Below the pieces are notes generated by a model. That model was not told where the DNA came from. It saw nothing but the letters and a program-made list of their open reading frames with translations, and ran no database searches. Below, piece by piece: positions 13,135 to 45,900 of a stretch of 64,000 nucleotides of DNA (positions are counted from its first letter, which is position 1; every line of letters starts with the position of its first letter). The stretch comes from a virus. Lineage: Duplodnaviria > Heunggongvirae > Uroviricota > Caudoviricetes. The stretch lies in IMG/VR virus record IMGVR_UViG_2645727636_000004, positions 76,925-140,924 of that record. The stretch is one strand, 5' to 3'. A program made the translations under genes and the position numbers.

Positions 13135-13156
13135 ATAATAAAATACATAAAATATG

Positions 13157-14311: not shown

Positions 14312-14356
14312 TATCATGCTTTTATAAAATTAAATACATAATAAGGAGTGGTGTAG

Positions 14357-23070: not shown

Positions 23071-23087
23071 AATAGATGATTAACAGT

Positions 23088-23120
23088 CACTCATTATTAA
23101 ATGGGTGGCTTTTCTTTTTA
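23088..23120 (+). terminator. intrinsic terminator (8-bp stem with one G-U pair, then GCTTTTCTTTTTA)
   Basis: CACTCATT at 23088-23095 pairs with AATGGGTG at 23100-23107; a T-run follows. Confidence 0.5.
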
Positions 23121-23151
23121 TAATATTTCCCTTTTATAAAATTAAATAAAG

Positions 23152-23197
23152 AAATACATAATTAATACTTGATTTTATGTATTTTGTTAATTATACT
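23152..23197 (+). promoter_or_regulatory. perfect palindrome of the AAATACATAA motif overlapping a sigma-A-like promoter (TTGATT, 17-nt spacer, TATACT)
   Basis: Arms at 23152-23161 and 23175-23184 (TTATGTATTT) with a 13-nt spacer; -35 at 23169-23174; -10 at 23192-23197. Confidence 0.5.
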
Positions 23198-23241
23198 TAG
23201 GTTAAGAAGTCAAACATTACTAAATATTAGGAGGAGAGCAC

Positions 23242-23595
23242 GTGATTGAAATTAAAGAAGGGTTCGGAGTGGACAATAAAGTATGGGCATTTACTTTCAG
23301 TAAACCTTATCAAATTGTACCAATTGGAGAAAATAAGCTTGGAGAGAATCATCTAAATAGACGATTAAAAAAGCTCAAAGAATATGATACACCAAAATAT
23401 CTTGGGAATGTCGGATCATTATTGCCTCACAGATACAGTAATATCAAAGAAATTAAAAAAGAGATTATTCTAGTAAAAAAGTTCATCAGTAGAAAAGGAA
23501 CTGATGATGAAGAAATTTATTATGATAAGGAATTTGAGGTATTTGTAATTCACTTCGATGATAATGAAAATTTAATGGTGCTAAATAAGAATTAA
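23242..23595 (+). CDS. hypothetical protein (117 aa), GTG start
   Basis: RBS ttAGGAGGAGAGcacGTG. Confidence 0.55.
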   Translation: MIEIKEGFGVDNKVWAFTFSKPYQIVPIGENKLGENHLNRRLKKLKEYDTPKYLGNVGSLLPHRYSNIKEIKKEIILVKKFISRKGTDDEEIYYDKEFEVFVIHFDDNENLMVLNKN

Positions 23596-23650
23596 AGCAT
23601 TAAACGATATTCGTATTTTACAAAATAAAAAATAGAATGGAGAAATTAAA

Positions 23651-23872
23651 ATGAAAAATGGCAAAAACTTTTTTGAGTATTATGTATACGTAGATAAGAG
23701 ATCAGGAAGTAAGGAGAATAACTGCTTCACTATTTTTAGTTCAGACATTTTAAATGAGAATGACATTATCGTAAACAACAATGAGTATTTCAAAATTACA
23801 GAAGTCTATGAAGATAACTTAACTGTTGAAAGTATTACAGTTAATGCAGTTAATGTATATAAGGTAATTTAA
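23651..23872 (+). CDS. hypothetical protein (73 aa)
   Basis: RBS aatGGAGaaattaaaATG. Confidence 0.5.
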   Translation: MKNGKNFFEYYVYVDKRSGSKENNCFTIFSSDILNENDIIVNNNEYFKITEVYEDNLTVESITVNAVNVYKVI

Positions 23873-23899
23873 TAATATTCGAATTTATGAAAGGAGAGT

Positions 23900-24248
23900 T
23901 TGTCAATAGATAATAATGATGTTGGAAATGACTGTAAGAAGGAATTTATAATCGATAAGGATTCCATGGTTAAAGAAGTTACAATGTGGATTTATAAAAA
24001 TACCTTCATGGGTGGTAATTTAGATAAAACATTTAAATTAAATATAGAAATTGAGAAAATAAATGATAATTAGAAAGGTTATATAAACTAGGACTTAGTG
24101 AAAACGATGTAAATACTCTTAATTCAATTAATGATTCAGTAATAAAAATAGATTTCTTTAATCAATTACTTATTCAAGTCCATAACAATGGATTTAGGAA
24201 AGGAGTAGACGAAACAATAGGTTATGTGAAAGAAATCACCAACCAATA
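23900..24248 (+). pseudogene. possible frameshifted or disrupted gene
   Basis: A 400-bp stretch has no intact ORF of 60 aa or more on either strand; two adjacent open frames (23900-24073, then 24070-24248) would join with a -1 shift near 24065-24072; the first has only a TTG start 3 nt after GGAG. Confidence 0.25.
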
Positions 24249-24271
24249 ATACTTTTGGAAAGAGGTAGTCA

Positions 24272-24676
24272 ATGGATAATAAAATTACAAAAGAAGCTGC
24301 ACTTCAATTAAATCAGGCAAAGGATGTAATTTGGAGCGCAATGAACTTAATGATCAAAAAGCAAGGATATAGTGATTTAACTTTACACTTGGAAGGTTCT
24401 TATTATGAAATAAGTGATATTTTAAGTAATTCAGAAGTGGTAAGTAATGATATTAAATTGTTTTATGTCTACAAAAAAGATTGGTACTGTAACACTGAAG
24501 AAAAAGGATTTATTGTAAAATCTACGGATTGGAAAAGCGCAAAAGCTATTGCTATGAAAAATATCAATTTTAAAGAAGAAAGTAGAATAAATGTAATTGT
24601 TGAAGAAGTTGACAGTATTGAAGAAAATATACTGTATTCTACTGTTAATATAAGAAATAATATTACGTGCAATTAA
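24272..24676 (+). CDS. hypothetical protein (134 aa)
   Basis: RBS gAAAGAGGtagtcaATG. Confidence 0.55.
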   Translation: MDNKITKEAALQLNQAKDVIWSAMNLMIKKQGYSDLTLHLEGSYYEISDILSNSEVVSNDIKLFYVYKKDWYCNTEEKGFIVKSTDWKSAKAIAMKNINFKEESRINVIVEEVDSIEENILYSTVNIRNNITCN

Positions 24677-24711
24677 ATAAGAAATACATATTTGAAGAAA
24701 GGGGTTTATAT

Positions 24712-25086
24712 TTGAAGGTAATTAATTCTAAAATTTATTTTCAAGTTGGAATGTTGTACGTAAAGGATCTAGACACCTTTGATATTCAATTCACAAAAGA
24801 AATTAAAGAGGCATACTATGTTGATCTATTGGTAGATTTTCAATATAAGGTTGCTAAAATAGTAAGTTCAATAAAAAGATTAGTGGAAACAGAGCCGAAG
24901 TTGATATTTCATAGAGAATTAATCGATGAATACTGCTTAGATGATTATACAGTTTGGTTAAATGGCGGTTTCATTAATGGAGTAGAAGTCGACAAGATGT
25001 ATTGGACTCAAATTACTGTTTTAGACAAAGAAAAAGATGAACATTTTCATAAGTGGTTAAATAAGGATTACCTACATAATAAATAA
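24712..25086 (+). CDS. hypothetical protein (TTG start; the track's GTG at 24667 would place the AAATACATAT motif inside the coding region)
   Basis: GAAAGGGG lies 8 nt before TTG 24712; motif at 24682-24691. Confidence 0.5.
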   Translation: MKVINSKIYFQVGMLYVKDLDTFDIQFTKEIKEAYYVDLLVDFQYKVAKIVSSIKRLVETEPKLIFHRELIDEYCLDDYTVWLNGGFINGVEVDKMYWTQITVLDKEKDEHFHKWLNKDYLHNK

Positions 25087-25119
25087 TAAATAATTCGATA
25101 TTATAAAGGAGAATAAAGA

Positions 25120-25275
25120 ATGAGTTTGAATTACAATAAAGAACGATCAAGCTGCGGCTCAGGAGGATGTGTTACATGTCCATTTTCTCAAAATGAGGAT
25201 GCGTTTTATGCAGAAAACACAGGATGTCTGCCAACAGTAAATGAAATTTTGGATTTACCTGAAAACAAAATGTAA
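25120..25275 (+). CDS. small Cys-rich protein (51 aa)
   Basis: Translation MSLNYNKERSSCGSGGCVTCPFSQ...; RBS AAAGGAGaataaagaATG. Confidence 0.4.
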   Translation: MSLNYNKERSSCGSGGCVTCPFSQNEDAFYAENTGCLPTVNEILDLPENKM

Positions 25276-25295
25276 ATTGGGGATGTCATGGTGAA

Positions 25296-25523
25296 GTGGG
25301 CGTAGTTTGTAGAGGGTTCGCTAAAGAGTACAAAAGGTTAGTAAATAAAGTAAATAAAGATTTGCCAATCGTAGATTTTGATGAGTTTACACATTTAGGA
25401 ATGGATGTAGCTATTGCATTAGCTAAAGTTAGAAAAGGAATTAATCCATTGAAAGACGAGTTAAGTAAGTATAAAGGATGTTATTCGGAGCTGAACTACT
25501 TTGATTACAGTAAAATTAAATAA
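25296..25523 (+). CDS. hypothetical protein (75 aa), GTG start
   Basis: GGGGATG lies about 10 nt upstream of the GTG. Confidence 0.5.
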   Translation: MGVVCRGFAKEYKRLVNKVNKDLPIVDFDEFTHLGMDVAIALAKVRKGINPLKDELSKYKGCYSELNYFDYSKIK

Positions 25524-25545
25524 ATACATAAATGAGGATAGGTAG

Positions 25546-25770
25546 ATGGTAACGATACTTATATTTTTGTTTGGAGCAAGTTTGTTTTCAACTGTATTTC
25601 ATTTTCTTTATATCATGGGTGCTATGGACGAAGATGGATATCCTCCTAAGAAAAAGAAGCGAAGAAGAGGATTTATCAGAATGGTTATCTCTGCATTCAT
25701 CTGTGCTGTATTTCTTGGTTTATTGAACGATTATCATAATGGGTTAATTGAATTAAACTGGTGGCAATAA
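25546..25770 (+). CDS. two-TM membrane protein with a KKKKRRR loop (74 aa)
   Basis: Two hydrophobic segments flank PPKKKKRRRG; RBS atGAGGAtaggtagATG; motif at 25522-25531. Confidence 0.55.
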   Translation: MVTILIFLFGASLFSTVFHFLYIMGAMDEDGYPPKKKKRRRGFIRMVISAFICAVFLGLLNDYHNGLIELNWWQ

Positions 25771-25817
25771 GATTATTATATAAAAAGTTGATATTATAAA
25801 AATAGGAGGAATGAACA

Positions 25818-26003
25818 ATGTCAATTTGTTATGAATGTCAAATGGATAAGATAGTTAGTGGGTGTGGAGTTTCAGTTAAAGATACTAAGGTCGTAAATGG
25901 AATTGGTGTAGTTGAATGTAAATATTTTATGGAGCTAAGTGGAGACTTATTAAAAGCTCAAAAAAATAAAAACGAAATGATTAATAATGCTAAATTTAAG
26001 TGA
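25818..26003 (+). CDS. small Cys-rich protein (61 aa)
   Basis: CYEC...SGCG...C spacing; RBS atAGGAGGaatgaacaATG. Confidence 0.5.
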   Translation: MSICYECQMDKIVSGCGVSVKDTKVVNGIGVVECKYFMELSGDLLKAQKNKNEMINNAKFK

Positions 26004-26042
26004 AACAATGATGTTTTGAAAATATAAATTGGAGGTAACTAT

Positions 26043-26399
26043 ATGTTTAAATTTGAGTGTGGAGATAGTATTAAATTTGGTGAAGAATACTGTAAAGAGT
26101 TTGAACGAGAAGATTTAATTAGTAAAACCATCATGATGACTCCTCAATACTTTGAAGAAGATAATGGGATATACGTTTATACATCTACGTATGCAGGTAT
26201 TTATGATAAAGAAAATAAGGAAGCTCACAGTATTTATCATTTATTTGGTAACGATTTTGAGTATTTCATGGACTGCGAATTAGTCAAAGGGTCTAATGAA
26301 GATAAGAAAAAATATGAAGAAATTATTAATTTACACAACAAAGTATTAGAAGACGAAGCTGCTAGATGGATTGAATTCACCTCGGAAAAAGGATTTTAG
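26043..26399 (+). CDS. hypothetical protein (118 aa)
   Basis: RBS ttGGAGGtaactatATG. Confidence 0.55.
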   Translation: MFKFECGDSIKFGEEYCKEFEREDLISKTIMMTPQYFEEDNGIYVYTSTYAGIYDKENKEAHSIYHLFGNDFEYFMDCELVKGSNEDKKKYEEIINLHNKVLEDEAARWIEFTSEKGF

Positions 26400-26461
26400 A
26401 AGAAATATTAAATAATAATTTCATTTTATAAAAACAAATACATAATAAAGGAGTGTTCAAA

Positions 26462-26722
26462 TTGCAATTTGCATACAGGTTAGTTGATTCAAAAGGAGCT
26501 TCTATTGATTGGAGTCAGAACACAAAAACGTTGAAGGTAGATATTTCAGTTATTAAAGATAATGACTATTTTGAAGGTGGTAATTTAGATTATTTTAAGA
26601 CTGTTTGTACTTTTCTTAATGAGGTATCTGTAAAAGGATTGGAAGGCAATATTGATGTTGAGATGCCAATTAGGATTGCAAAAATTAAAATCACAAAGAC
26701 TATAGGTGCCTATATAAAGTAA
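26462..26722 (+). CDS. hypothetical protein (TTG start)
   Basis: AAAGGAGTG, then TTG at 26462; motif at 26437-26446. Confidence 0.5.
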   Translation: MQFAYRLVDSKGASIDWSQNTKTLKVDISVIKDNDYFEGGNLDYFKTVCTFLNEVSVKGLEGNIDVEMPIRIAKIKITKTIGAYIK

Positions 26723-26764
26723 ATATCTAAATGATAGTCGCATTTTATAGAGAGGAGATGGATT

Positions 26765-26947
26765 ATGGAAGAAGTATATAGTGAAGTTATTAGAAAACGT
26801 AGAGAATTATTTGCTCAAAAATATAAAGAGCATTTCGGCATAGAGTTAGATTTTAAAATATTAGAGAAGCAAAATCAAGAAAAAATTAAGAATGGCGAAT
26901 ATACATTTGTGTTAAATTATTATGGTATTAAATCCAACTGGATGTAA
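26765..26947 (+). CDS. hypothetical protein (60 aa)
   Basis: RBS agAGAGGAGatggattATG. Confidence 0.5.
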   Translation: MEEVYSEVIRKRRELFAQKYKEHFGIELDFKILEKQNQEKIKNGEYTFVLNYYGIKSNWM

Positions 26948-26985
26948 ATAAAATGTATACAATAAAAGAAGGAGCTGATATTATT

Positions 26986-27738
26986 ATGATGAAAATTGAG
27001 TATTTAAAACCGTTTTATACAAAAGTCACTGGTAATAAATTACGTTTAGTTTTTGCTCATCAATACTTAACCGTTTCAAAAGATAATGAGATTTTCCATT
27101 TCATTCCCATCGAATGTAAAGAGATGATCGTTAACTTGGATACAGAGCAAGTTGAAAATTTATCTGAGGTTTTTGTTTTCCAGAAAGATAAACGTTTTAT
27201 TCGACTACCGTTATATCAATTATTATTAATTACAAATATACATAGTTTTATAAATCCAATAATACATAATGAAAAGAATAAAAATAATCAGAACAATTTA
27301 AAGGCATTTGATAAAATTTTAATTGCTAAAGTCAACTTTGAAGGATTGAGTGATTTGCCAACAAGTGAGAAAACATATTACTTTAGATCGTATGATACTG
27401 ATCTTAAGATAAATGATATTGTATGGGTAGATAGTCAACGCAAACAACAACTAGCAAATTTCCTAGGGTATATTAATGAGTCTGAGATCAATTGCAACCC
27501 AACAAAGTTCATTATTAGAAAGGCGAATGCTGCTGAAGTAACAGGTCGAGAAGATTTTACTATAGATATTCAGGAGTCAAGAAAATGCGAACACACTATG
27601 CCAGACAAGTTCAGTCATGAAATTATCAAGTTACTTTCTGAAATAATGCAATTTAATAAAGAAAATATGATTGATAGATATCTAGATAATAAGGATTTTG
27701 ATGGCTTAAATGAATTCCTAAGTGTTCAAGTATCATAA
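26986..27738 (+). CDS. hypothetical protein (250 aa)
   Basis: ATG at 26986 preceded by GAAGGAGctgatattattATG. Confidence 0.55.
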   Translation: MMKIEYLKPFYTKVTGNKLRLVFAHQYLTVSKDNEIFHFIPIECKEMIVNLDTEQVENLSEVFVFQKDKRFIRLPLYQLLLITNIHSFINPIIHNEKNKNNQNNLKAFDKILIAKVNFEGLSDLPTSEKTYYFRSYDTDLKINDIVWVDSQRKQQLANFLGYINESEINCNPTKFIIRKANAAEVTGREDFTIDIQESRKCEHTMPDKFSHEIIKLLSEIMQFNKENMIDRYLDNKDFDGLNEFLSVQVS

Positions 27739-27777
27739 AAGCCATCTATTACGAAAATAAATAACAGGGAAGGGACG

Positions 27778-27921
27778 ATGACATCGGATAAATCAATGTG
27801 TTTTAGATGTGATGAGTTCACGGAGTCAATTGAGTATAAATGTGTTAAGTGTATGCAATTCAAGTTAATTGATACTATGTATGTATTAGATAAAGAAGAA
27901 ATTGTAGAGGATGATATGTAA
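27778..27921 (+). CDS. Cys4 zinc-ribbon mini-protein (47 aa)
   Basis: Translation MTSDKSMCFRCDEF...YKCVKCMQF; RBS caGGGAAGGGAcgATG. Confidence 0.4.
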   Translation: MTSDKSMCFRCDEFTESIEYKCVKCMQFKLIDTMYVLDKEEIVEDDM

Positions 27922-27923
27922 AA

Positions 27924-28094
27924 ATGAGTTATGAATTATTTAGAGGAGATGACCATATTTACACGTATGACCACAAACATGTAGCTGAAAAACAAGCATC
28001 AACTCTTGGTTCAGAGTTCTATGTAAGGGAAATAACATTTGATGAGTATTACAAACAGATGAAAGAAATATATGTAGAAGGGAGATATAAATAA
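27924..28094 (+). CDS. hypothetical protein (56 aa)
   Basis: Begins 3 nt after the previous stop; frame open to 28094. Confidence 0.4.
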   Translation: MSYELFRGDDHIYTYDHKHVAEKQASTLGSEFYVREITFDEYYKQMKEIYVEGRYK

Positions 28095-28136
28095 TTACAT
28101 AAATTAGATGTATTATGAAAAATGAGGAGGATATTA

Positions 28137-28412
28137 ATGTATAAAATTAAATTAGAGGAATATGAATTTACTAATAATAATGGTGTAATTACAGTAAAGC
28201 GTTATGGAGAGCATTGGAGAAATTATATAGGAGATAATGCAGTATTAGCTTTGCTGCATAAGATTGAAGACTTAGAAGAAGGAAATAAGAAATTAATCAG
28301 TTCATTAGAAGAAATTGCACATCATGTATCTGTACCAATAGATGAACCTGAAAACTATGAAAATACAGTGTATGAATTCATAGATATTGCAAAAAGAGCT
28401 TTAGGATATTAA
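28137..28412 (+). CDS. hypothetical protein (91 aa)
   Basis: ATG at 28137 preceded by aatGAGGAGGatattaATG. Confidence 0.55.
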   Translation: MYKIKLEEYEFTNNNGVITVKRYGEHWRNYIGDNAVLALLHKIEDLEEGNKKLISSLEEIAHHVSVPIDEPENYENTVYEFIDIAKRALGY

Positions 28413-28435
28413 AAGAAATAAAAAGGGGAATACAT

Positions 28436-28603
28436 TTGAAAAAGAAATTAATTGATTATATTAGAGAAGAAAGTCAGTGTAATTATGTAGATTTGATTGA
28501 CTACATTATGGAATTAAATACATTAGGTTCAGATGAATTAAAAGCTAAGTGTTTATTGGATTTAATTTGGTATATACATAATGTAGAGTCAAGTGAAGAT
28601 TAA
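28436..28603 (+). CDS. hypothetical protein (55 aa), TTG start
   Basis: RBS aaAAGGGGaatacatTTG. Confidence 0.4.
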   Translation: MKKKLIDYIREESQCNYVDLIDYIMELNTLGSDELKAKCLLDLIWYIHNVESSED

Positions 28604-28654
28604 ATATCAACATGTTTACATAAAAGAGATATATTAATGAAGGGAGTTATTACA

Positions 28655-28831
28655 ATGAAAAAAGAAATAGATGAACACTATCTAACAATTATTGAAAAAG
28701 AACGAGCTAGGACTTGTGAATTGATTGATCTAATTAAGAGACTACGTGAAAATTGTGAAATACCTTACAATGGTCTAAGAAAAGAAGTGAGAATGGTGAT
28801 AAAAAAATTTGATAATGAACTAAATATTTAA
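28655..28831 (+). CDS. hypothetical protein (58 aa)
   Basis: ATG preceded by GAAGGGAGttattacaATG. Confidence 0.5.
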   Translation: MKKEIDEHYLTIIEKERARTCELIDLIKRLRENCEIPYNGLRKEVRMVIKKFDNELNI

Positions 28832-28872
28832 TAATAGGAATCTTTGATTGAAATGGAGTGTGTAGAAAAGCC

Positions 28873-29034
28873 ATGACAAAAGAAAACAAGCTAAGTGTAC
28901 GCTTAAATGGCTCGCTAACAAATCGATGTTCTAAAAGAAAATTAGATAATTTACTGTTTGCTATAAATGATTATATTGGGTTAAAGGATCAATTGAAGAC
29001 ACAGGAGATGGGAGCTGCTTCTACTTATGAGTAA
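28873..29034 (+). CDS. hypothetical protein (53 aa); weak RBS
   Basis: ORF MTKENKLSVRLNGSLTNRCSKRKLDNLLF...; only agaaaag upstream. Confidence 0.35.
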   Translation: MTKENKLSVRLNGSLTNRCSKRKLDNLLFAINDYIGLKDQLKTQEMGAASTYE

Positions 29035-29221
29035 TGGTGTACGATTTGGATTGCAGTATCTAGAAGAAGGAGAATATACTCTGAATGGAGGTCTAGGGAA
29101 TAAAATACTCAGTGAATTTGAAGTAAAAAACGGTCAATTATTCTTTAATGGCGAGAAAGAACCGACTGTACCGCCTACTATGTATGAGTTTTTAAAAAGT
29201 AAATCCAGTAATGTTAAATAA
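29027..29221 (+). CDS. hypothetical protein (64 aa)
   Basis: Overlaps the previous ORF by 8 nt; from the ORF track. Confidence 0.45.
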   Translation: MSNGVRFGLQYLEEGEYTLNGGLGNKILSEFEVKNGQLFFNGEKEPTVPPTMYEFLKSKSSNVK

Positions 29222-29258
29222 AAACTAAATATTATTAAATACATAAAAGGAGAATAGT

Positions 29259-29582
29259 ATGTCAGAAAAAGTGAAAGTATCGAAAGAGGTTGCAGAGGCT
29301 CTGAAAACAGTTTTGCCAAATGGAAATATTAGCGCTTGTATCGAAAAGCATGTGAAAGGTTGGGATTACGAACCTAAATTGCCTTTGAAAAAACTTTCAA
29401 CAGAAGAGTTTGCAAGATGTTGTTTGATAGGCTACGTGATCGAAGAATCGCCAGAAGAAAAGTTGTTATCGACTTATAAGTTAGGAGATATGGAAGTTGA
29501 ACCTTGTGGTGCTTGTTACCAAAGTGGCATTAGAGACACTCTTAATATATTAGACATGAAGATTAAAGGTATCAACTCTTAA
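29259..29582 (+). CDS. hypothetical protein (107 aa)
   Basis: RBS AAAGGAGaatagtATG; motif at 29238-29247. Confidence 0.55.
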   Translation: MSEKVKVSKEVAEALKTVLPNGNISACIEKHVKGWDYEPKLPLKKLSTEEFARCCLIGYVIEESPEEKLLSTYKLGDMEVEPCGACYQSGIRDTLNILDMKIKGINS

Positions 29583-29658
29583 CTTAATGATATTCATGGT
29601 GTTATCAACAAAACTGCATAAAAGGTAAGTATTATGGAAAGTGAAAAGGAGAGTTAGA

Positions 29659-29973
29659 ATGCAAATAAATTTTGAAAATGGATCAACTTTGACATCGATT
29701 GATACAAATGACGTAATACGTGGTCATTTATTTAGTCATGTGATTGCTCCAAAAGATTTTGAATACATATTATGTGAGCGAAAAAACGGCAAGAAGTTCA
29801 TTAAAGTAATCATGTACTATAATGATGCTAACGGTTATATCGAAGTAGCAAGGATAAATCCAATTAAGAATGACTTCAGTGAAGATGGTTACGGTGACAT
29901 TGACCATTTATTCAGTTACTTAGAAGACAATCAGAAAGTCATCAGTAACATTAAACAACAATTAATTAAATAG
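29659..29973 (+). CDS. hypothetical protein (104 aa)
   Basis: ATG at 29659 preceded by AAAAGGAGAGttagaATG. Confidence 0.55.
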   Translation: MQINFENGSTLTSIDTNDVIRGHLFSHVIAPKDFEYILCERKNGKKFIKVIMYYNDANGYIEVARINPIKNDFSEDGYGDIDHLFSYLEDNQKVISNIKQQLIK

Positions 29974-29993
29974 TAAAGGAACTGATGTAATTT

Positions 29994-30173
29994 ATGAAGA
30001 AACGTGTAATTATTGCAAATATCATCAGAAAATTAGAAAGTGATTCAAGACGTTCTCCGAACCCTTTCGCTTCAACTCTTTCTGAGGACGATTATATACA
30101 ACTAGGGAAGAGTTACTATGCTGATGAGCTATTACGTGAAATTAGAATTATGTTGGATAGTAACTTTTCATAA
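29994..30173 (+). CDS. hypothetical protein (59 aa)
   Basis: RBS AAAGGAactgatgtaatttATG. Confidence 0.45.
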   Translation: MKKRVIIANIIRKLESDSRRSPNPFASTLSEDDYIQLGKSYYADELLREIRIMLDSNFS

Positions 30174-30205
30174 AATTTAACTTTTACTGAAAGGGTGTCA
30201 TTATA

Positions 30206-30475
30206 ATGATCAAAAATTATTTAGATACTATGTATGAAAAACATAAGAAGTATTTAGATTCTTTAAATCAACTAGAAGAATATCTTGAGAATGGTATTTT
30301 TAAATACAAAGGAATTGAAGTAGTAGTAAGTAACTTTGACAAAGAAGGATGGGTTTTGGAAATCACATCTCTGGACAGCAAATCATCATTATGGAATGAT
30401 AGTCCAAATATCTATATGTCAGTATACGAGTTTAATGATGAAATTGAACTTTCTAGACAGAAAGCAATTAATTGA
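30206..30475 (+). CDS. hypothetical protein (89 aa)
   Basis: RBS GAAAGGGtgtcattataATG. Confidence 0.55.
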   Translation: MIKNYLDTMYEKHKKYLDSLNQLEEYLENGIFKYKGIEVVVSNFDKEGWVLEITSLDSKSSLWNDSPNIYMSVYEFNDEIELSRQKAIN

Positions 30476-30506
30476 AGATTAAATAATAGGAACATATTAC
30501 AAAACG

Positions 30507-30538
30507 TTAAGAGTCGATCATCAAAAGTCGGCTCTTAA
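30507..30538 (+). repeat. inverted repeat: 11-bp arms (one G-U/mismatch) around a 10-nt spacer, just upstream of the recombinase gene
   Basis: Arms TTAAGAGTCGA at 30507-30517 and TCGGCTCTTAA at 30528-30538; no T-run follows. Confidence 0.45.
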
Positions 30539-30635
30539 ATAAAATAAATAATAAAATACATAAAAAATGCTTTACAATACACAAAATAATGGATATACTA
30601 TTATTAATAAAGAAATTATAAAGGGGTTGCAAATA

Positions 30636-31709
30636 ATGGTTATGGTTAATCACAATACTTCATATATGGGCAACTACATAGGAGATTATATAGAAGAGTT
30701 TTTAAAAGTAAAAGGTAAAAAGTCTTTTAATACAGAAAAAACTTATAGGTCTAGTTTGAATCAAGTGTTTAAGGACATCTTAGGTAACAATGATTATATT
30801 TATATAACAGATAAAAATATTGAACATGACTTACGTTCAGAAATTTTGTTTGAATATTTCGATTCATTATATGATGCAGAAAAAGAAGATGGTACTAGGA
30901 TGTATGCTAATCAGACGATTAATAGTAGACAATCTGCGATTAAGTCATTGATCACTTATTTAAAGACAAAGAAAATAGATGGAGAAAATTTAATAAAGTA
31001 TGATTTAGATGATTTGAAAGTAATTGAATCGCTTAAGAACATAGGCGAAGAAATAGAAATGATACCATTTGAATTATCAATGGAATACATTGAATATTTT
31101 GGAAAAGAAGAACAGGGCTTAGAGAAATCATTAATTATTGAATTAGCTATAGACTCCGCACTTAGAGCATCTGAATTATTAAAGATAGAATGGTCAAATT
31201 TCACACCAGTAGAAGACGGAGTTATTATGAAGTCTCATGGTTACAATAAAGGAAAAGGCAATGAAGAATGGATAGACAAGATATCCTTTGAACTATATAA
31301 TAAGTTGTTACAACTAAAAGAAATTGGAAATACGAATAAATTATTTACTTTGACTTACAAAAAATTAGTCGGGATGATGGATAGGGCTAATAAGCTATTA
31401 AATAATACAGATTTAGAATACTCTTTCCATTCATTTAAAAAATTATCCGTTACGATGTGTTATTTAAACAATGGAAATTGCATAGATTCAGCAATGAAAA
31501 AGGCTCGACATAAAAATGTAAATACCACTATGAGATATCTAAGATTAACCAATCTGAATGTTACAGGTATTATATCTGCAAAAATGACTACTGCTGAAGA
31601 ATTATATAAAACAGCTTCACATGAATTATTATTAGAATGTTTAGAAGAAATGCGTCCAGAGATGCTTTTATTACTAAATAATAAAATCAAGAATAAAATA
31701 ACAAAATGA
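30636..31709 (+). CDS. tyrosine site-specific recombinase (integrase/Xer-like), catalytic residues intact (357 aa)
   Basis: R in ALRASEL; H in FHSFKK; RHKNVNTTMRYLRL matches the box II R-H...Y signature; ATG at 30636 preceded by AAAGGGGttgcaaataATG (the track's start at 30567 has no RBS). Confidence 0.75.
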   Translation: MVMVNHNTSYMGNYIGDYIEEFLKVKGKKSFNTEKTYRSSLNQVFKDILGNNDYIYITDKNIEHDLRSEILFEYFDSLYDAEKEDGTRMYANQTINSRQSAIKSLITYLKTKKIDGENLIKYDLDDLKVIESLKNIGEEIEMIPFELSMEYIEYFGKEEQGLEKSLIIELAIDSALRASELLKIEWSNFTPVEDGVIMKSHGYNKGKGNEEWIDKISFELYNKLLQLKEIGNTNKLFTLTYKKLVGMMDRANKLLNNTDLEYSFHSFKKLSVTMCYLNNGNCIDSAMKKARHKNVNTTMRYLRLTNLNVTGIISAKMTTAEELYKTASHELLLECLEEMRPEMLLLLNNKIKNKITK

Positions 31710-31776
31710 ATAAATTTATGTGACATTATAGATGATAAATGGTAAAATCAACATAGTATTGAAAGGAGTTTTTTAA

Positions 31777-33123
31777 ATGAAAATCAATAAAGATAGAGAA
31801 TCTTTAGAGACAGAAGTAAAAAGTCTAATTTCTTTATTTGCTACAACTGTAGATAAAAAAGAATTTGACTTAATTGTAGAGCATTTAAATAGTAAACATG
31901 GAATTAAAAAGTCTAATGTTTATATGTTACTTAACAACTCAAATAATGTATCTAAATTAACATTAGAAGAATTAGCATTATTCGGAAAACAATTAACTGT
32001 AAAATTAGGAATTGATAATATTGAATGGATGAATACTTGGTTCACTGAAAGAGAAATTAAAGAATTCGAAAGATTTCAATTTGTTGATATGCAATCAATT
32101 GATGATCTAGATTTCCCTATAACGCTTTCCAATGTAACTTATCTTGGAAATGGATACTATAATTTAACAATTACAAGACAATTGCTTGGTAGGTTATATA
32201 AATACGGTAAATTAAACTACAATCCAAATGTACAACGTGGAATGAGAAAAGTCTATCGTTATGGTAAAGAGATGGAAGAACCAATTGTATTTAAAAGTAA
32301 AGTAACTGAAATGAGTAAATTGACATTAGAAGATAAATTAGAACCATCAACAATAACATTAAATGCAGCACAAATGTCGTCTGATGAAGGTGAAGAACTA
32401 ATTTACGATGAAAAATCGCACAAATTAACAATAAATTCAGGGACAATTTTAGATATCGTAGACGGAATGCATAGAACGTTAGCAACATATAGTGCATATT
32501 CAAAAGATAAAGACATTAACGGATCTTATCCAATTACTATTTCTAACAAATCAGATGAAGAAATTCAGAGATATCAAGTAAATATGGATAAACAAACTCC
32601 ATTAACAAGAAGTAAGATTGTCGAGTATTCAGGTGGGCATGTTAGTAATGTGATTAATATTTTAAAATCTAAAGGTGAATTAAAAGACAGAATTAGTTCA
32701 GTAGGAGACAGTAAGGCAACTTTACGCGGTAGTGATATTATCCCTTATAAAATGCTACATGCTGCTATTAGTAATGTTTATAATATTGATTCTGTACTTC
32801 AATCAAGAAAAGTTGCAGATGAAATAAATGAATATCTAGTATATCTATTTGGGTATTTTGGTAAGCACGAAAGAGATGAATATAAAGTATTGTTTGATGC
32901 AGATTTATTCGAAGCTCATTTAACTTTGGCTAGTAAGATGAAAGAGAATAAAATTCCGTATGACAAACTGTCTGAAATAATTAAAATTGAAGCATTTAAT
33001 ATAGAGAATAAATTCTGGAAAGATACAAATGTAATCAATAATGAAGGTAAAGTAGTAAACAAGAAAATGAGAAGGAAGATAAGTGATTTCTTTGAAGGTA
33101 TGTTAGAGGAGGCAGAATTGTAG
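31777..33123 (+). CDS. DGQHR-domain (DndB-like, ParB/Srx-fold) protein with an extra N-terminal domain (448 aa)
   Basis: NVQRGMRKVYRYGKEM followed about 70 aa later by ILDIVDGMHRTLA, paralleling the QR...DGQHR layout of the DndB family; RBS GAAAGGAGttttttaaATG. Confidence 0.55.
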   Translation: MKINKDRESLETEVKSLISLFATTVDKKEFDLIVEHLNSKHGIKKSNVYMLLNNSNNVSKLTLEELALFGKQLTVKLGIDNIEWMNTWFTEREIKEFERFQFVDMQSIDDLDFPITLSNVTYLGNGYYNLTITRQLLGRLYKYGKLNYNPNVQRGMRKVYRYGKEMEEPIVFKSKVTEMSKLTLEDKLEPSTITLNAAQMSSDEGEELIYDEKSHKLTINSGTILDIVDGMHRTLATYSAYSKDKDINGSYPITISNKSDEEIQRYQVNMDKQTPLTRSKIVEYSGGHVSNVINILKSKGELKDRISSVGDSKATLRGSDIIPYKMLHAAISNVYNIDSVLQSRKVADEINEYLVYLFGYFGKHERDEYKVLFDADLFEAHLTLASKMKENKIPYDKLSEIIKIEAFNIENKFWKDTNVINNEGKVVNKKMRRKISDFFEGMLEEAEL

Positions 33124-34100
33124 TGTATAACAGAGAATATAAAATGAAATTTATTGAAACTTTAGATGTTAAAGAAATAAGTGAGGAGCGTTATGTTTAT
33201 CTTTTTGAAAAAACAGCGGAAGTTGAATTTAAAATTAATAAAGATTTGTTTGATATGAATTTCGAAGAATTGGAAATTACTTTTTATGCAGCTAAGAGAA
33301 GTAAGCATCGATCACTAATTTCATATATTACAACTATAAAAAATTACATTACATGGGCTAAAGATAATGGTTATGGCGTATCACCAGTTCATCCAATCGT
33401 GGAATCTATCAATACTTCTTTTGTTGATAAATACTTATATAAAGAAGGATTAACTTATTATACAAGAGAAGCTTTACTTATGAATATTGAAAAGCTTATA
33501 AATGTTCGTGATAAAGCAATCGTTTTAGCAGTGTTTGAGGGGATCAGAGGTAAGGCTTTATCTGAATTAACTAATTTACGATATGAAGATTTATCTGAAA
33601 AAGAAGGTAAATATTATGCATCATTGCTTTCTGATGAAATTAATTTAGATAATCGTCAAATTGAAATATCTAAAGAGTTATACGACTTATTTGTTCAAAC
33701 TTATAGAAAAACAGAGTACATTGGAAAGAAAGGAAATGTTACTCGTGTTGCTGATGGAGAATATATATTAAGAAAGAATCGAGTAGGTGAAGGTGATATT
33801 AGATTTACAGTCAGTATGATTAATAGTTTATTCTCGGGCATCATTAAAACTGAGTTTGAAGATGCTCAAATAACAGTAACCTCATTAATTGAATCTGGGG
33901 CAATGTGGTATACAAATTCATTACTAAAAGATGACAGAGTTATTACTAAAGAAATAGCTACCAATGTAATGAATAGATACGGTTTATACTCGTTCAAAGG
34001 TGAAAAGAAAAGTTATCCTTCATTTATGAGATATAAAGAAGTTATAAATGATGAATTTTTTGAAGATAACTATGGCAGCTTTAAATATGAATTTAAATAA
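33123..34100 (+). CDS. tyrosine-recombinase-like protein, apparently degenerate (box I Arg retained, box II His/Arg/His not found); GTG start with stop/start overlap (325 aa)
   Basis: DKAIVLAVFEGIRGKALSELTNLRYEDL resembles recombinase box I; no HxxR...Y found downstream; RBS GAGGAGG lies 9 nt before the GTG. Confidence 0.5.
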   Translation: MYNREYKMKFIETLDVKEISEERYVYLFEKTAEVEFKINKDLFDMNFEELEITFYAAKRSKHRSLISYITTIKNYITWAKDNGYGVSPVHPIVESINTSFVDKYLYKEGLTYYTREALLMNIEKLINVRDKAIVLAVFEGIRGKALSELTNLRYEDLSEKEGKYYASLLSDEINLDNRQIEISKELYDLFVQTYRKTEYIGKKGNVTRVADGEYILRKNRVGEGDIRFTVSMINSLFSGIIKTEFEDAQITVTSLIESGAMWYTNSLLKDDRVITKEIATNVMNRYGLYSFKGEKKSYPSFMRYKEVINDEFFEDNYGSFKYEFK

Positions 34101-34110
34101 ATTTAAAAAG

Positions 34111-34142
34111 GACTGAATGTTTACCATTCGGTTTCCTTTATA
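34111..34142 (+). terminator. intrinsic terminator ending the recombinase module
   Basis: Stem GACTGAATG at 34111-34119 pairs with CATTCGGTT at 34125-34133 (G-U pairs), then TCCTTTAT. Confidence 0.5.
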
Positions 34143-34267
34143 CATAAAAATAAATAAATGATTGTACAATGTTTGATTTTTGCTAAATTTATTCAAAGAA
34201 ATAGAAATGGAGAATATTTCTAGGAACAATCAAACGAAAAATAAGAACAAATGTTTGCATTTCTATA

Positions 34268-34296
34268 TTGACAATACTGTATATGGTTGGTAAAAT
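34268..34296 (+). promoter_or_regulatory. strong sigma-A-like promoter: TTGACA, 17-nt spacer, TAAAAT
   Basis: Consensus -35 at 34268-34273; -10 at 34291-34296; lies in a 250-bp non-coding gap. Confidence 0.6.
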
Positions 34297-34367
34297 TGTA
34301 TCAATAGAGATGATAGTAGATGCTACATCTATACTAAAATTAATGGAAAATGGAGGAATATTACAAT

Positions 34368-34817
34368 ATGAGTGCACTTTTAGTATCATTTGAAGCTAAT
34401 CTAGTAATAAAAGATAAAAGTCCAGAAGAGTTGGAGGAGTTGTTTGATGGATTGCTACCGTCAAACGGACTCCATATGAAAAACATAAAGGGTAGAAAAT
34501 TATTAGTTGAATGTATGGATTCGCAATTTACAGAGATTTTAGAAATCGATGAAGATGGACAAGAAGTAACTTTTTTAAATCGTAAACCAGAATTAAAATA
34601 TTATCCTTCAACAAATAATACTTTTAAAACTAATGATATGATTAGGATTAATGGGAAAGGTGACTACAATATCATCTTGACTCCTATGTTTGCATTTTTA
34701 TACAACGGCGAAACACAGACTACTATTGAGATGGACAACGTAAAAAATATCAATGATACGAAGCTATATCTAGAACAAAACTATCCGGAATACATAGTGC
34801 TTCGTAAGATTACCTGA
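34368..34817 (+). CDS. hypothetical protein (149 aa)
   Basis: ATG at 34368 preceded by aaatGGAGGaatattacaatATG. Confidence 0.55.
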   Translation: MSALLVSFEANLVIKDKSPEELEELFDGLLPSNGLHMKNIKGRKLLVECMDSQFTEILEIDEDGQEVTFLNRKPELKYYPSTNNTFKTNDMIRINGKGDYNIILTPMFAFLYNGETQTTIEMDNVKNINDTKLYLEQNYPEYIVLRKIT

Positions 34818-34922
34818 TCAGATTAATTAATGATGATTAATGTTAGGGTGTGGTATTAGGGGTGTTTCTAATGTCGCACCTTGAAATTAATAAACAATAA
34901 AATACATAAAGGTGGTATGTTC

Positions 34923-37919: not shown

Positions 37920-38116
37920 AAGCGAATATCGTAAATTAAATAATAAAATACATAAAATGCACTTGAAATTAATAAGTTGTTAGATTAAGATATATTTAAC
38001 AAATGAAACGAAGAAATGATAATTATAACATTCTCATTATAAATAAATAGTTGTTATGTAGCAAAAGTCGGTGATTAATTAATAAAATACATAATAATGA
38101 AATGGAGATGTTGACG

Positions 38117-39021: not shown

Positions 39022-39648
39022 ATGGATAAATTAACAAATGAAGAATTAGTGGAGTTATATAAGAAAGGCAAAGAAGAGGCAGGAAATGAATTATTTAATA
39101 GGAATAAAGGTTTAATCTATGAAATCGTAAGAAAGTTTAATAATAAGTCTAGGTTGAGCGAAGAAGATATAATAAGTGCATCTTACTATGGATTTGCAAA
39201 AGCTATTAAAACTTTTAATGAATCAAAAGGAATAAAATTCTCTACATACTGTTACACTGTTATGAAAAATGAAGTATGTAAAAGTTTAGAATACTACAAA
39301 TATAAGAAGAATGATGACTCAGATTTTATTATTTCATCATTAGACCTTAAGATATCTTTAGAAAATAAAAAATCTTCTTTGATAGAAATATTGGACGCTT
39401 CAGATAACGATGTATTACATAAAAATGACTATACATACTTACATAATGCAATAGAATACGCAAGGACACTGATAATTGAAAAGTATCATCCGTACTTATT
39501 ACCATTGCTATTTAGAGAAACAACTACGTATGAAGTAGCTCCAATTATTGGGGTAAGTCCAAGAACAGTGCATTATACAACTACAATGTTTAGAGAGCAT
39601 GTGCGTGAATATATTTATCATTATTCAAATGGTGAAATAGTTTCCTAG
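39022..39648 (+). CDS. phage-encoded sigma-70-family RNA polymerase sigma factor (208 aa)
   Basis: Region 2-like LVELYKKGKEEAGNELFNRNKGLIYEIVRKF...DIISASYYGFAKAIKTFNESKGIKFSTYCYTVMKNEV; C-terminal HTH-like TYEVAPIIGVSPRTVHYTTTMFREHV (region 4). Confidence 0.7.
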   Translation: MDKLTNEELVELYKKGKEEAGNELFNRNKGLIYEIVRKFNNKSRLSEEDIISASYYGFAKAIKTFNESKGIKFSTYCYTVMKNEVCKSLEYYKYKKNDDSDFIISSLDLKISLENKKSSLIEILDASDNDVLHKNDYTYLHNAIEYARTLIIEKYHPYLLPLLFRETTTYEVAPIIGVSPRTVHYTTTMFREHVREYIYHYSNGEIVS

Positions 39649-45817: not shown

Positions 45818-45846
45818 AAATTAAATAATAAAATACATAAAAATAC

Positions 45847-45874
45847 TTGTAATATTAAAATAAGATGTTATAAT
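45847..45874 (+). promoter_or_regulatory. sigma-A-like promoter: TTGTAA, 16-nt spacer, extended -10 TGtTATAAT
   Basis: -35 at 45847-45852; TG at 45866-45867; -10 at 45869-45874; AAATACATAA at 45831-45840 lies 6 nt upstream. Confidence 0.6.
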
Positions 45875-45900
45875 AAATATATAAGTTAAGAAAGGGAGTG

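Follow-up and report, generated by a model that had tools for sequence, protein, structure and literature searches.

The closest described counterpart of the locus analysed here is the last part of the repressor operon of SPbeta-like phages, known as yopMNOPQR in SPbeta and as phi3T_92-97 or sroA-F in phi3T (PMC10769878). YopP of this operon carries a XerC domain and YopQ a ParB_N_Srx domain (PMC8612738), and YopR, also named MrpR, is a repressor with a dead recombinase fold that binds the SPBRE (PMC10516654). More recent work describes binding of SroF as a monomer to a 26-bp box, with SroE as the second repressor and Sar as an antirepressor under LexA control (bioRxiv 10.1101/2025.11.27.690993). 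In the SPbeta lysogen, yopQ and yopR are the transcribed genes. Here we compare with these systems a three-gene block in a 64-kb stretch of phage DNA (the window), which a preliminary description had placed in a lytic-looking gene array and for which it recognised no described system of the same composition.

A yopP-yopQ-yopR module in a Lysinibacillus prophage

The block and its predicted signals, all on the + strand, are as follows.

30507..30538, + strand: inverted repeat, read as an RNA hairpin (12-bp stem including one G.U pair, 8-nt loop)
30544..30563, + strand: AT-rich box ATAAATAATAAAATACATAA, 7 nt upstream of the -35
30571..30599, + strand: probable module promoter TTTACA-17-TATACT (consensus scan)
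30636..31709, + strand: gene 1, 357 aa, YopP/SroD-like tyrosine recombinase homologue (Pfam, phi3T_95, XerA alignment)
31720..31748, + strand: candidate internal promoter for genes 2 and 3, GTGACA-17-(TG)gTAAAAT (scan)
31777..33123, + strand: gene 2, 448 aa, homologue of YopQ/SroE (helical N-terminal region plus ParB/Srx-DndB-type domain with QR...DGMHR)
33123..34100, + strand: gene 3, 325 aa, SroF/MrpR(YopR)-family repressor with a catalytically dead tyrosine recombinase fold
34107..34139, + strand: hairpin ending the module, terminator-like with a weak U-run (-12.1 kcal/mol, z = -3.5)

Window genes 1, 2 and 3 match phi3T_95, phi3T_96 and phi3T_97 one to one in order, strand and length (357, 448 and 325 aa vs. 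356, 448 and 323 aa), with pairwise E-values of 3e-12, 9e-38 and 8e-19, and gene 2 also matches SPBc2 yopQ. Of the relatives fetched, nine cover the region upstream of gene 2 (two are phage records, seven are contigs from genomes or metagenomes), and every one of them has the trio. The PHROG families of the module are common to SPbeta-like phages, and in tblastn searches gene 3 finds matches only in SPbeta-like phages of 120–165 kb. FJQ98_16130 of L. agricola, encoded on a contig of 5.29 Mb, matches gene 2 with 100% identity, and the genes that the window has in common with SPbeta-like phages include those for YopX, DNA polymerase III alpha, RecJ, ligase, a DnaB-like helicase and a Sak4-like protein. 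The window belongs to a temperate, SPbeta-like prophage of the Lysinibacillus agricola chromosome, and what had looked like a lytic array is its early/replication region.

Judged from sequence, the architecture of the module is orthologous to SPbeta yopP-yopQ-yopR(mrpR) and phi3T sroD-sroE-sroF. The three genes are the Lysinibacillus version of this module, which keeps SPbeta-like prophages dormant, and the block is very probably the lysogeny-maintenance (repression) module of the L. agricola prophage. A described system with this composition does exist, and the block is syntenic in 9/9 relatives and belongs to a family of established function. The finding is therefore largely ordinary, since it concerns an already described module and not a new recombination or DNA-modification cassette. 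Points against this reading are that no operator for gene 3 was identified and that a purely regulatory role leaves the five kept catalytic residues of gene 1 unexplained.

Gene 3 scores 58.1 bits against Pfam MrpR_N_CB and 24.1 bits against MrpR_C_cat (below the cut-off of 27), its PDB matches are the solved SroF/YopR/MrpR structures (9rd5, 2e-15; 8bjv; 8a0a), and it is 26% identical to phi3T_97. The conserved R/K/H/R/H/Y set is gone and the C-terminal half lacks any His, bearing out the earlier view of a degenerate recombinase-like protein, and the box I-like segment GIRGKALSELTNLRYEDL is present as reported. The reported overlap with gene 2 is likewise confirmed: the GTG start shares one base with the TAG stop of gene 2 and lies 10 nt downstream of a GAGGAGG ribosome-binding site; the N-terminus at this GTG aligns with YopR residue 1. 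Among close relatives, gene 3 shows 47–52% identity vs. 63–85% for gene 1, a faster divergence that is as expected for an immunity determinant.

Gene 1 and the question of recombination

That gene 1 is a tyrosine recombinase homologue is clear from its match to Pfam Phage_integrase PF00589 (38.4 bits, cut-off 27.1; E = 1.4e-9) and its 25% identity to phi3T_95. The full R...H-x-x-R...Y signature ascribed to it, however, is not there: with the family profile aligned to the XerA structure 4a8e, box II reads H265-S-F-K268, so that the active-site residues are R177, K207, H265, K268, H292 and Y301, with K268 replacing the second Arg. Family alignments show five of the six catalytic residues to be kept, and in most members the second Arg has become Lys. 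The reading frame can begin at 30567 or at 30636; since the predicted promoter comes only after the ATG at 30567, a start at 30636 is favoured.

Gene 1 might keep catalysis and recombine elsewhere, for example in resolving multimers of the replicating phage genome, besides being a member of the repression module. A near-complete active site (R, K, two His and Tyr) has been kept over deep divergence (21–39% identity), close relatives conserve gene 1 more strongly than the other two genes, and gene 3, with no catalytic position left, indicates that loss is tolerated where catalysis is not needed. We nevertheless consider catalysis elsewhere unlikely, given that the Arg-II to Lys change seen in most of the family is normally strongly deleterious in tyrosine recombinases, that no candidate recombination site was identified, and that SroD is reportedly an auxiliary repressor.

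The more specific proposal, that gene 1 is catalytically active as a site-specific recombinase in dimer resolution, inversion or integration and uses the inverted repeat at 30507-30538 as its core site, is very improbable. The repeat itself, TTAAGAGTCGA-N10-TCGGCTCTTAA, is present directly upstream of gene 1 (at a distance of 32 nt from the upstream gene's stop and of 33 nt from the module's -35), its 12-bp arms around 8 bp are superficially lox-like, and gene 1 is not only above the Pfam threshold but also keeps R177, K207, H265, H292 and Y301, most of them invariant across distant relatives. The details of the repeat, however, are those of an RNA stem and not of a duplex read by a protein. 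Its arms are complementary at 10/11 positions, the mismatch being a G.U pair in + strand RNA, and the + strand folds with -14.9 kcal/mol (z = -6.3) vs. -8.7 kcal/mol (z = -1.4) for the - strand. The homologous hairpins in relatives L003, L011 and L012 show one compensatory change from A-U to G-C, and their mismatches are wobbles only, on the + strand only. Nor does the repeat follow the recombinase: in L004, with a gene 1 that is 85% identical, a hairpin of completely different sequence is found at this position, no hairpin is present in L005 and L010, and gene 1 of L009 overlaps the upstream gene. The upstream hairpin is absent or replaced in three of six close relatives. A conserved recombination site was rejected on these grounds, namely the lack of co-variation with the recombinase and the tolerance of mismatches only in + strand RNA. 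In addition, the search for a partner site gave no other copy of the arm in the 64-kb window (3 matches at ≤1 mismatch, both arms themselves included, vs. 1.8 expected), the second catalytic Arg is Lys in the clade of gene 1, and gene 1 lies not at an end of the prophage but in the middle of phage genes that span at least 60 kb. Because the repeat behaves as an RNA hairpin, is replaced or absent in relatives and has no second copy, we do not regard it as a lox/dif-like site; it is probably a 3'-end or insulator structure of the upstream transcription unit. It has no U-tract and does not appear in the terminator scan listing.

Gene 2 and the question of DNA modification or defence

Gene 2 carries the NVQRG...VDGMHR motif noted before, and residues N149, Q153, R154, D226, D229, G230, H232 and R233, which include QR and DGxHR, are invariant in its family. 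Placement in the DndB/ParB-fold family is supported at the domain level, with matches to Pfam DndB for 10 of the 15 family members (best E = 7.6e-19), but the window protein itself matches neither DndB nor TIGR03187 (DGQHR). Its structural neighbours are PadC, KorB, Pnob8 ParB-N and DUF262 proteins including BrxU and SspE. DndB is a transcriptional regulator of the dnd operon, and the fold of gene 2 thus fits a repressor role.

The DndB matches, the presence of BrxU and SspE among the neighbours and the label of DNA sulfur modification protein that several phage records give to the gene 2 homologue could all suggest a DNA-modification or anti-phage defence cassette around a DndB/DpdB-like protein. 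Such a cassette is extremely improbable: there are no DndA/C/D/E or Dpd partner genes in the window, where the ORFs of at least 400 aa are only an unknown-function protein (with matches to unknown-function PHROG families and a marginal nucleotidyltransferase match), DnaB, RecJ and Pol III alpha. None of the four proteins matches a PADLOC model, TIGR03187 is not matched, and all relatives keep gene 2 in its place between an integrase-like gene and an MrpR-like one.

Promoters and limits of the module

The AT-rich box before the module promoter belongs to a motif family, AAATACATAA, that recurs all over the prophage with a strand bias, with 33 exact copies on the + strand vs. 2 on the - strand, and 88 matches at ≤1 mismatch vs. 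34 expected. Its AA-TACA core is invariant upstream of gene 1 in 7/7 aligned relatives, and the box-then-promoter geometry is repeated at 9279, 13143, 23154, 37948 and 45833. Within the module promoter, 7/7 relatives keep TATACT unchanged and 5/7 have TTTACA or TTTACT as the -35. At the candidate internal promoter the pattern TGAC.-17-TG.TAA.AT is kept in L003, L004 and L005; such a promoter agrees with the transcription of yopQ and yopR in the SPbeta lysogen. The hairpin that ends the module is kept in 7/7 relatives, with compensatory changes in L005. The hairpin part of the terminator claimed here is present; it has no clear U-tract and was not listed by the terminator scan.

The block, being self-contained, equipped with a promoter and a terminator of its own and including an integrase-like gene, could also be seen as an integrative element hitchhiking in the genome of a lytic phage. 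This idea has practically no chance of being right: GC content is 0.27–0.29 in block and flanks alike with no compositional anomaly, all relatives have the block in the same position with respect to the YopX, RNase H and sigma-factor genes, the one direct repeat that flanks it (30521-30564 / 34867-34910, 77% identical) is itself a copy of the AAATACATAA box that recurs across the genome, and the host phage is temperate.

A LexA-type box and promoter downstream of gene 3

Beyond the module-end hairpin, a further transcription unit begins.

34244..34257, + strand: LexA (Cheo/SOS)-type box AGAACAAATGTTTG, 11 nt upstream of the -35
34268..34296, + strand: strong sigma-A-type promoter TTGACA-17-(TG)gTAAAAT for the downstream gene(s) (11/12 consensus + TG)
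34368..34817, + strand: FJQ98_16120, 149-aa acidic protein, after GGAGG at 34352-34356

The consensus promoter TTGACA-17-TAAAAT reported previously is present, with an upstream TG, and its hexamers are invariant in 7/7 relatives except for one A/G position in the -10. GAAC and GTTT of the LexA-type box are invariant in 7/7 relatives, whereas all four spacer positions vary. The box is the only intergenic GAAC-N4-GTTY in the window, where this pattern as such is not enriched (3 matches vs. 2.9 expected). An invariant GAAC-N4-GTTT box at a promoter suggests SOS control of the next gene. FJQ98_16120, the first gene of the unit and found at the same position in all Lysinibacillus relatives, is a positional candidate for an antirepressor.

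The following steps of a lysogeny-maintenance mechanism are inferred from the characterised Bacillus systems, while the present analysis provides the homology, gene order, synteny and conserved signals. The operon would be transcribed from the promoter at 30571-30599 up to the hairpin at 34107-34139, with the internal promoter at 31720-31748 keeping genes 2 and 3 on in the lysogen and the upstream inverted repeat, as an RNA hairpin, closing or insulating the preceding transcription unit. The gene 3 protein would act as a monomeric clamp on long AT-rich boxes at several early promoters and so silence lytic genes, gene 2 would be a second, non-redundant repressor, and gene 1 would have an auxiliary role. 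Upon induction, LexA cleavage would open the promoter at 34268-34296, leading to production of an antirepressor encoded in that unit.

Comparison with known systems

The window shares with SPbeta and phi3T the three protein families, their order, strand and near-identical lengths, the close placement of gene 3 behind gene 2, the location of the module in the early region of a ~130 kb temperate phage upstream of yopX-type genes, and a LexA-type box before the next transcription unit. In contrast to those phages, the host here is Lysinibacillus and not Bacillus subtilis, a divergent yopS-like HTH gene after gene 3 is missing from the window, and phi3T has Arg at the second catalytic Arg position where gene 1 has Lys. 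No sroA-C (sroABC) and no aimR-aimP-aimX are detectable upstream in the window; with no homologues found of the arbitrium genes aimR/aimP or of sroA-C, the upstream signalling differs from that in the model phages. The window proteins are only 25–28% identical to the characterised ones, and function is for this reason transferred by homology and synteny alone.

Compared with DndB (PF14072)/DGQHR proteins and KorB/ParB repressors, gene 2 has the same ParB/Srx-type core with QR and DGxHR motifs. It differs from the former in reading DGMHR (the Q position being M, Y or F across the family), in missing the DndB and TIGR03187 models, in a helical N-terminal extension of ~110 aa and in the absence of dnd or dpd genes nearby. 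Gene 3 aligns over its full length, CB and CAT domains included, with MrpR/SroF (PDB 8A0A, 8BJV and 9RD5; PF22822 and PF22823), has likewise lost the recombinase catalytic set and shares the FEG-x-G-xx-SE motif, which holds the G136 position of the SPbeta c2 ts allele; K169 and Y304 of MrpR, on the other hand, are not conserved, and the C-terminal domain falls just under the Pfam cut-off. Finally, FJQ98_16120 has neither sequence nor fold similarity to Sar (phi3T_99)/YopT, the LexA-controlled DNA-mimic antirepressors of SroF, but like them it is encoded shortly after the repressor gene, with a conserved LexA-type box and a strong promoter in front of it, and it is about as acidic as Sar (pI 4.6 vs. 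4.7).

A module resembling the SPbeta repressor operon

The features at the centre of this analysis are:
30507-30538: inverted repeat 5' of gene 1
30636-31709, + strand: gene 1, SroD/YopP-like (integrase-like)
31777-33123, + strand: gene 2, SroE/YopQ-like (ParB/DndB-like)
33123-34100, + strand: gene 3, SroF/MrpR-like
34107-34139: hairpin at the end of the module
34268-34296: promoter, TTGACA-17-TAAAAT
34368-34817: FJQ98_16120, encoding a 149-aa protein

The three + strand open reading frames are present as the preliminary description had placed them, and so are the inverted repeat, the hairpin and the promoter that it listed; the genes are adjacent and co-directional, in the order integrase-like, ParB/DndB-like and MrpR-like. 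A megablast search with 30400-34400 against phage records gave no match, so that protein-level searches were needed. By BLASTP, genes 1, 2 and 3 match phi3T_95, phi3T_96 and phi3T_97 of phage phi3T (E = 3e-12, 9e-38 and 8e-19, respectively), which are likewise adjacent and in the same order and have lengths of 356/448/323 aa (357/448/325 aa in the window); phi3T_95, the match of gene 1, carries the annotation integrase/yopP. Gene 2 also matches SPBc2 yopQ (tblastn, E = 3e-21) and, over its full length, PHROG 5732. In SPbeta, yopMNOPQR corresponds to phi3T_92-97 and to sroABCDEF, the "SPbeta phages repressor operon" (PMC10769878), with a XerC-type integrase domain in YopP and a ParB_N_Srx domain in YopQ (PMC8612738). 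The master repressor, MrpR/YopR, is a catalytically inactive protein of tyrosine recombinase fold whose target is the repeated SPBRE element (PMC10516654). SroF forms a monomeric clamp on a 26-bp AT-rich box, and SroE is a second repressor that is needed for lysogeny (bioRxiv 10.1101/2025.11.27.690993). Judged from sequence comparison, the window trio is a divergent new copy of this known sroDEF/yopPQR repression module. The preliminary description knew of no described system of this composition, but the yopPQR/sroDEF literature describes the unit.

The same trio order is found in 9/9 of the relatives fetched whose upstream region is visible. The trio occurs in Mammaliicoccus phage phi36, in six Lysinibacillus-type contigs (gene 2 identity 54-64%) and in two distant contigs (23-35%). 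Phages of Staphylococcus, Geobacillus and Psychrobacillus and an unassigned metagenome contig have the trio, and an Anoxybacillus contig has at least the gene 2-gene 3 pair. The block is conserved and syntenic in relatives and the function of its family is established, a combination that the preliminary description had itself named as speaking against its reading. Its observations are largely real and its domain calls good, but the novelty and the recombination site that it proposed are unsupported.

The window belongs to a temperate prophage

Gene 2 is 100% identical to Lysinibacillus agricola FJQ98_16130, which is sited on a 5.29 Mb contig. The tblastn matches of gene 3 are confined to 120-165 kb SPbeta-like phages, with Bacillus, Mammaliicoccus, Staphylococcus, Brevibacillus, Geobacillus, Psychrobacillus and Alicyclobacillus as host genera. 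Other products encoded in the window are YopX, RNase H, RecJ, an Rv2179c-like exonuclease, a sigma factor, a Pol III alpha subunit, a DnaB-like helicase, an ATP-dependent ligase and a Sak4-like protein. On the basis of the chromosomal match, the SPbeta-like tblastn matches and this gene content, the window is from a temperate SPbeta-like prophage, of which it covers the early/replication region, and not, as the "lytic-looking" array had suggested, from a lytic phage. Another product of the prophage early region, 321 aa long and encoded at 5481-6446 (+), has a NucS C-terminal endonuclease domain (E = 1.1e-9).

Gene 3 is a degenerate recombinase of the MrpR/SroF family

Gene 3 begins with a GTG that shares a single base with the gene 2 stop codon, TAG; GAGGAGG lies 10 nt upstream, and the resulting N-terminus of gene 3 (MYNREYKMKF) aligns with YopR from residue 1 onward (MFNSEIKEKY). 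With the MrpR/SroF family models (Pfam PF22822 and PF22823), the N-terminal CB domain, MrpR_N_CB, scores 58.1 bits vs. a cut-off of 27, and the C-terminal MrpR_C_cat scores 24.1 bits, just under its cut-off of 27, in an alignment spanning 11-204 of 213; precomputed tables list both domains in close relatives. Among solved structures, gene 3 matches phi3T SroF (9rd5, E = 2e-15) and SPbeta YopR/MrpR (8bjv and 8a0a). The GIRGKALSEL segment, previously picked out as resembling recombinase box I, is present. The Arg-I position within the family is R in the window and N, F, V, K, A, L or D among relatives; Lys, HxxR, His/Trp and Tyr are likewise not conserved, and gene 3 has zero His in its C-terminal half. 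With Arg-I variable and no C-terminal His, the earlier view of gene 3 as a tyrosine recombinase fold that has lost its catalytic residues holds. By analogy with the characterised repressors, the gene 3 protein would silence lytic promoters via a long repeated box, and its inactivation would lead to prophage induction. In comparisons of close relatives, gene 3 has diverged most (47-52% identity), then gene 2 (54-62%) and then gene 1 (63-85%), a ranking that fits gene 3 as the immunity determinant.

The record of phi36 (PV389078.1), an induced prophage, splits its SroF/MrpR-like gene (5992-7004) into two CDSs labelled "integrase", 5992-6513 and 6516-7004; the gene has no single-frame translation and tblastn matches it in two pieces, which may reflect a frameshift, a sequencing error or a truly split repressor.

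A repeated box and a phage-encoded sigma factor

The box AAATACATAA has 33 exact copies on the + strand of the window vs. 2 on the - strand, and at ≤1 mismatch there are 88 matches vs. 34 expected. In Lysinibacillus relatives it occurs 7-10 times per 13 kb and exclusively on the + strand; the phi3T and Mammaliicoccus loci lack it. Two classes can be distinguished by their surroundings.

Locations of AAATACATAA in the window
Class A, extended box ATAATAAAATACATAAAA: 9267-9310; 13131-13190; 23143-23200; 30544-30599; 37925-37990; 45821-45880
Class B, examples: 26397-26445; 14300-14341; 7141-7179; 61540-61577

Class A boxes lie 5-7 nt 5' of sigma-A-like -35/-10 pairs, and class B copies lie 0-9 nt 5' of a Shine-Dalgarno sequence, often preceded by TTAAATAATA-N10-TTTTATAAAA. 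The box could be a promoter for a phage sigma factor, a 5'-UTR element or an operator. As the operator of gene 3 it is unlikely, given about 33 exact copies that mostly adjoin ribosome-binding sites. Its conservation in relatives with gene 3 identity of just 47-52% also makes it a weak candidate for an operator specific to immunity. The class B elements, which are promoter-like and repeated, have a candidate reader in a phage-encoded sigma factor at 39022-39648 (+; Sigma70_r2, E = 2.7e-10), for which three relatives (L003, L005 and L006) have a counterpart at the equivalent position.

Gene 2 has a ParB/DndB fold in a repressor context

The NVQRG...VDGMHR motif reported for gene 2 is present, and N149, Q153, R154, D226, D229, G230, H232 and R233 are invariant in the family. 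Gene 2 has a ParB/Srx-type fold with QR and DGQHR-like motifs; its neighbours in BFVD are DUF262, DndB-like, GmrSD-N and ParB proteins, and 10/15 homologues match Pfam DndB (PF14072; best E = 7.6e-19). The window protein itself has no Pfam match at E ≤ 1 and no TIGR03187 (DGQHR) match in NCBIfam. The invariant motif residues, the DndB matches within the family and the BFVD neighbours make the recognition of a DGQHR-like motif sound, but the context is a phage repressor module and not a dnd/dpd cluster. No dndCDE or dpd modification genes are found in the window or in any related locus, and PADLOC gives zero matches across all four proteins tested. A DNA-modification or defence cassette is very unlikely given the missing partner genes and the lack of PADLOC and TIGR03187 matches.

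Four entries label YopQ/SroE homologues "DNA sulfur modification protein DndB" and the MrpR-like genes next to them "integrase":
KP144388: Geobacillus virus E3
MT325768: Psychrobacillus phage Perkons
MT955612: Staphylococcus phage SPbeta-like 2
GCA_000346275: Anoxybacillus gonensis
Both labels are probably wrong in view of the module around the genes.

A conserved internal promoter, GTGACA-17-TGgTAAAAT, precedes gene 2 at 31720-31748. This fits the transcription reported for SPbeta lysogens, in which yopQ and yopR are the transcribed genes.

Gene 1 retains a nearly intact active site

Brady and colleagues reportedly described SroD as an auxiliary repressor in 2023. The reading frame of gene 1 is open from 30567; the AAAGGGG ribosome-binding site and the conserved promoter at 30571-30599 (TTTACA-17-TATACT) put its start at 30636. 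An AA-TACA box and the TATACT -10 hexamer are invariant 5' of gene 1 in all seven aligned loci. The protein scores 38.4 bits with Phage_integrase (PF00589), above the cut-off of 27.1. It was credited at first with the full R...H-x-x-R...Y signature, but it contains no H-x-x-R: H265-S-F-K268 aligns with H-Q-L-R of XerA 4a8e. Aligning the family profile to XerA 4a8e gives R177, K207, H265, K268, H292 and Y301 as the active-site set, which is incomplete because K268 occupies the position of the second Arg. In the gene 1 family (n = 8) the second Arg is Lys in 6/8 and Arg in phi3T and the metagenome contig; R177, K207, H265 and H292 are invariant and the Tyr nearly so. Gene 1 may therefore be more than a regulator: a near-intact active site would suit a protein that is still catalytic. 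We keep this reading as a rival, the Lys at the second-Arg position notwithstanding, because a purely regulatory role leaves the conservation of the active site unexplained.

The inverted repeat ahead of gene 1 is probably a transcript hairpin

The inverted repeat was previously read as a recombinase core site. Such a site has inverted binding arms flanking a 6-8 bp crossover region, plus a partner site, and 30507-30538 is the sole candidate. As + strand RNA the repeat forms a 12-bp stem (-14.9 kcal/mol, z = -6.3). A hairpin on the - strand was dropped for its poor folding (-8.7 kcal/mol, z = -1.4), which is weaker because the sole arm mismatch, a G.U pair on one strand, becomes A.C on the other. 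Homologous hairpins occur in three relatives (L003, L011 and L012), with an A-U to G-C double change, and the second mismatch in L011 is a wobble pair in the + sense only. Another relative (L004) has a gene 1 of 85% identity and, in this place, a 13-bp hairpin of unrelated sequence, two (L005 and L010) have no hairpin, and in the metagenome contig gene 1 overlaps the preceding gene. A window-wide search for a second copy of the repeat arm found only the two arms themselves and one chance-level match with one mismatch. The folding, the variation in relatives and the lack of other copies speak strongly against a recombinase acting on a core site here: there is no partner in the window and no co-variation with gene 1, and the repeat is missing in several relatives. 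The pattern instead indicates selection for a transcript hairpin at the upstream unit's end, rather than for a recombination site read by a protein.

Both this hairpin and that at 34107-34139 are stable stems conserved with compensatory changes. No U-tract (≥5 U in 8 nt) follows either, and a terminator scan reports neither; since the U-tract is missing, that 30507-30538 is a terminator is something we only infer. Just 5' of the hairpin at 30507-30538 lies the 12-mer AGGAACATATTA (30488-30499), which includes a GAAC half-site and has no second copy in the window. Four relatives (L003, L005, L011 and L012) share it unchanged and L004 differs at one position; the upstream genes differ among the loci that share it.

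A hitchhiking element is very unlikely: GC is 0.27-0.29 throughout, relatives have the block at one fixed position, and the sole flanking repeat is a copy of the genome-wide box.

A LexA-type box and a candidate antirepressor downstream

The hairpin at 34107-34139 is kept in 7/7 relatives, with compensatory changes in L005. Beyond it, the element GAACAAATGTTT lies 11 nt 5' of the invariant TTGACA. Its halves, GAAC and GTTT, are invariant in 7/7 loci and its four spacer positions all vary, as expected for a Bacillales LexA (Cheo) box. LexA-type matches in the window (3 vs. 2.9 expected) are not significant in number, and the argument for the box is one of position and conservation, not of count. 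SOS control of the downstream unit is reasonably supported. The first gene behind the box, FJQ98_16120, is conserved in position and encodes an acidic protein (149 aa, pI 4.6) that has no similarity in sequence or fold to Sar/YopT. Sar is a LexA-controlled antirepressor that frees SroF (bioRxiv 10.1101/2025.11.27.690993), and we hypothesise that the 149-aa protein is an antirepressor as well. The 17-mer ATGTTTGCATTT(C/T)TATA at 34251-34267 overlaps the right half of the LexA-type box and recurs with one mismatch at 34686-34702, inside the gene for the 149-aa protein; this recurrence may be due to chance.

Comparison with SPbeta and the arbitrium model phages

Searching the window by tblastn with phi3T_92-94, the sroA-C (yopM-N-O) genes, gave nothing at E ≤ 1, and AimR, AimP, SroA-C, YopS and Sar of phi3T have no tblastn match in the 64 kb window. 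The four ORFs 5' of gene 1 have no Pfam or PHROG match and no HTH_XRE domain; a hairpin and promoter lie between them and gene 1, with the module promoter directly behind the hairpin. Directly 5' of gene 1 (23071-30566), the largest ORF has 261 aa, far fewer than the 378 aa of phi3T AimR; a very divergent AimR may still exist, or one beyond the window. The segment 38189-38278 (+) weakly resembles the C-terminal end of AimX from phi3T (47% over 30 aa, E = 0.001), and relatives have small PF27083 MazE_antitoxin_C genes at the equivalent position; it may encode a YosL/AimX-like MazF-binding protein despite the lack of recognisable arbitrium genes.

What makes the module modestly interesting is the apparent lack of the arbitrium and SroABC layers, a conserved, apparently SOS-controlled unit without a Sar-like fold, and the near-intact active site of an SroD-like protein. 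One tentative and on balance unlikely scenario is that the Lysinibacillus module is a stripped-down SroD-E-F switch without arbitrium/SroABC, wired directly to SOS via the LexA box and an antirepressor of a fold unrelated to Sar/YopT, with gene 1 (Arg-II to Lys) still catalysing a DNA transaction. If true, the pair of recombinase-fold and ParB-fold repressors would be a switch able to work by itself, and one that is both older and more widespread than the arbitrium phages from which it is known. For annotation the copy is useful because the labels "integrase" and "DNA sulfur modification protein DndB" are routinely put on these genes in error, and comparative studies can use it to ask which components the switch needs. 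No new kind of system is revealed. The window trio is a divergent copy, at 25-28% identity and in a Lysinibacillus prophage, of the unusual SPbeta repression system, which joins a dead tyrosine recombinase repressor to a co-repressor of ParB/DndB fold and an integrase-like partner.
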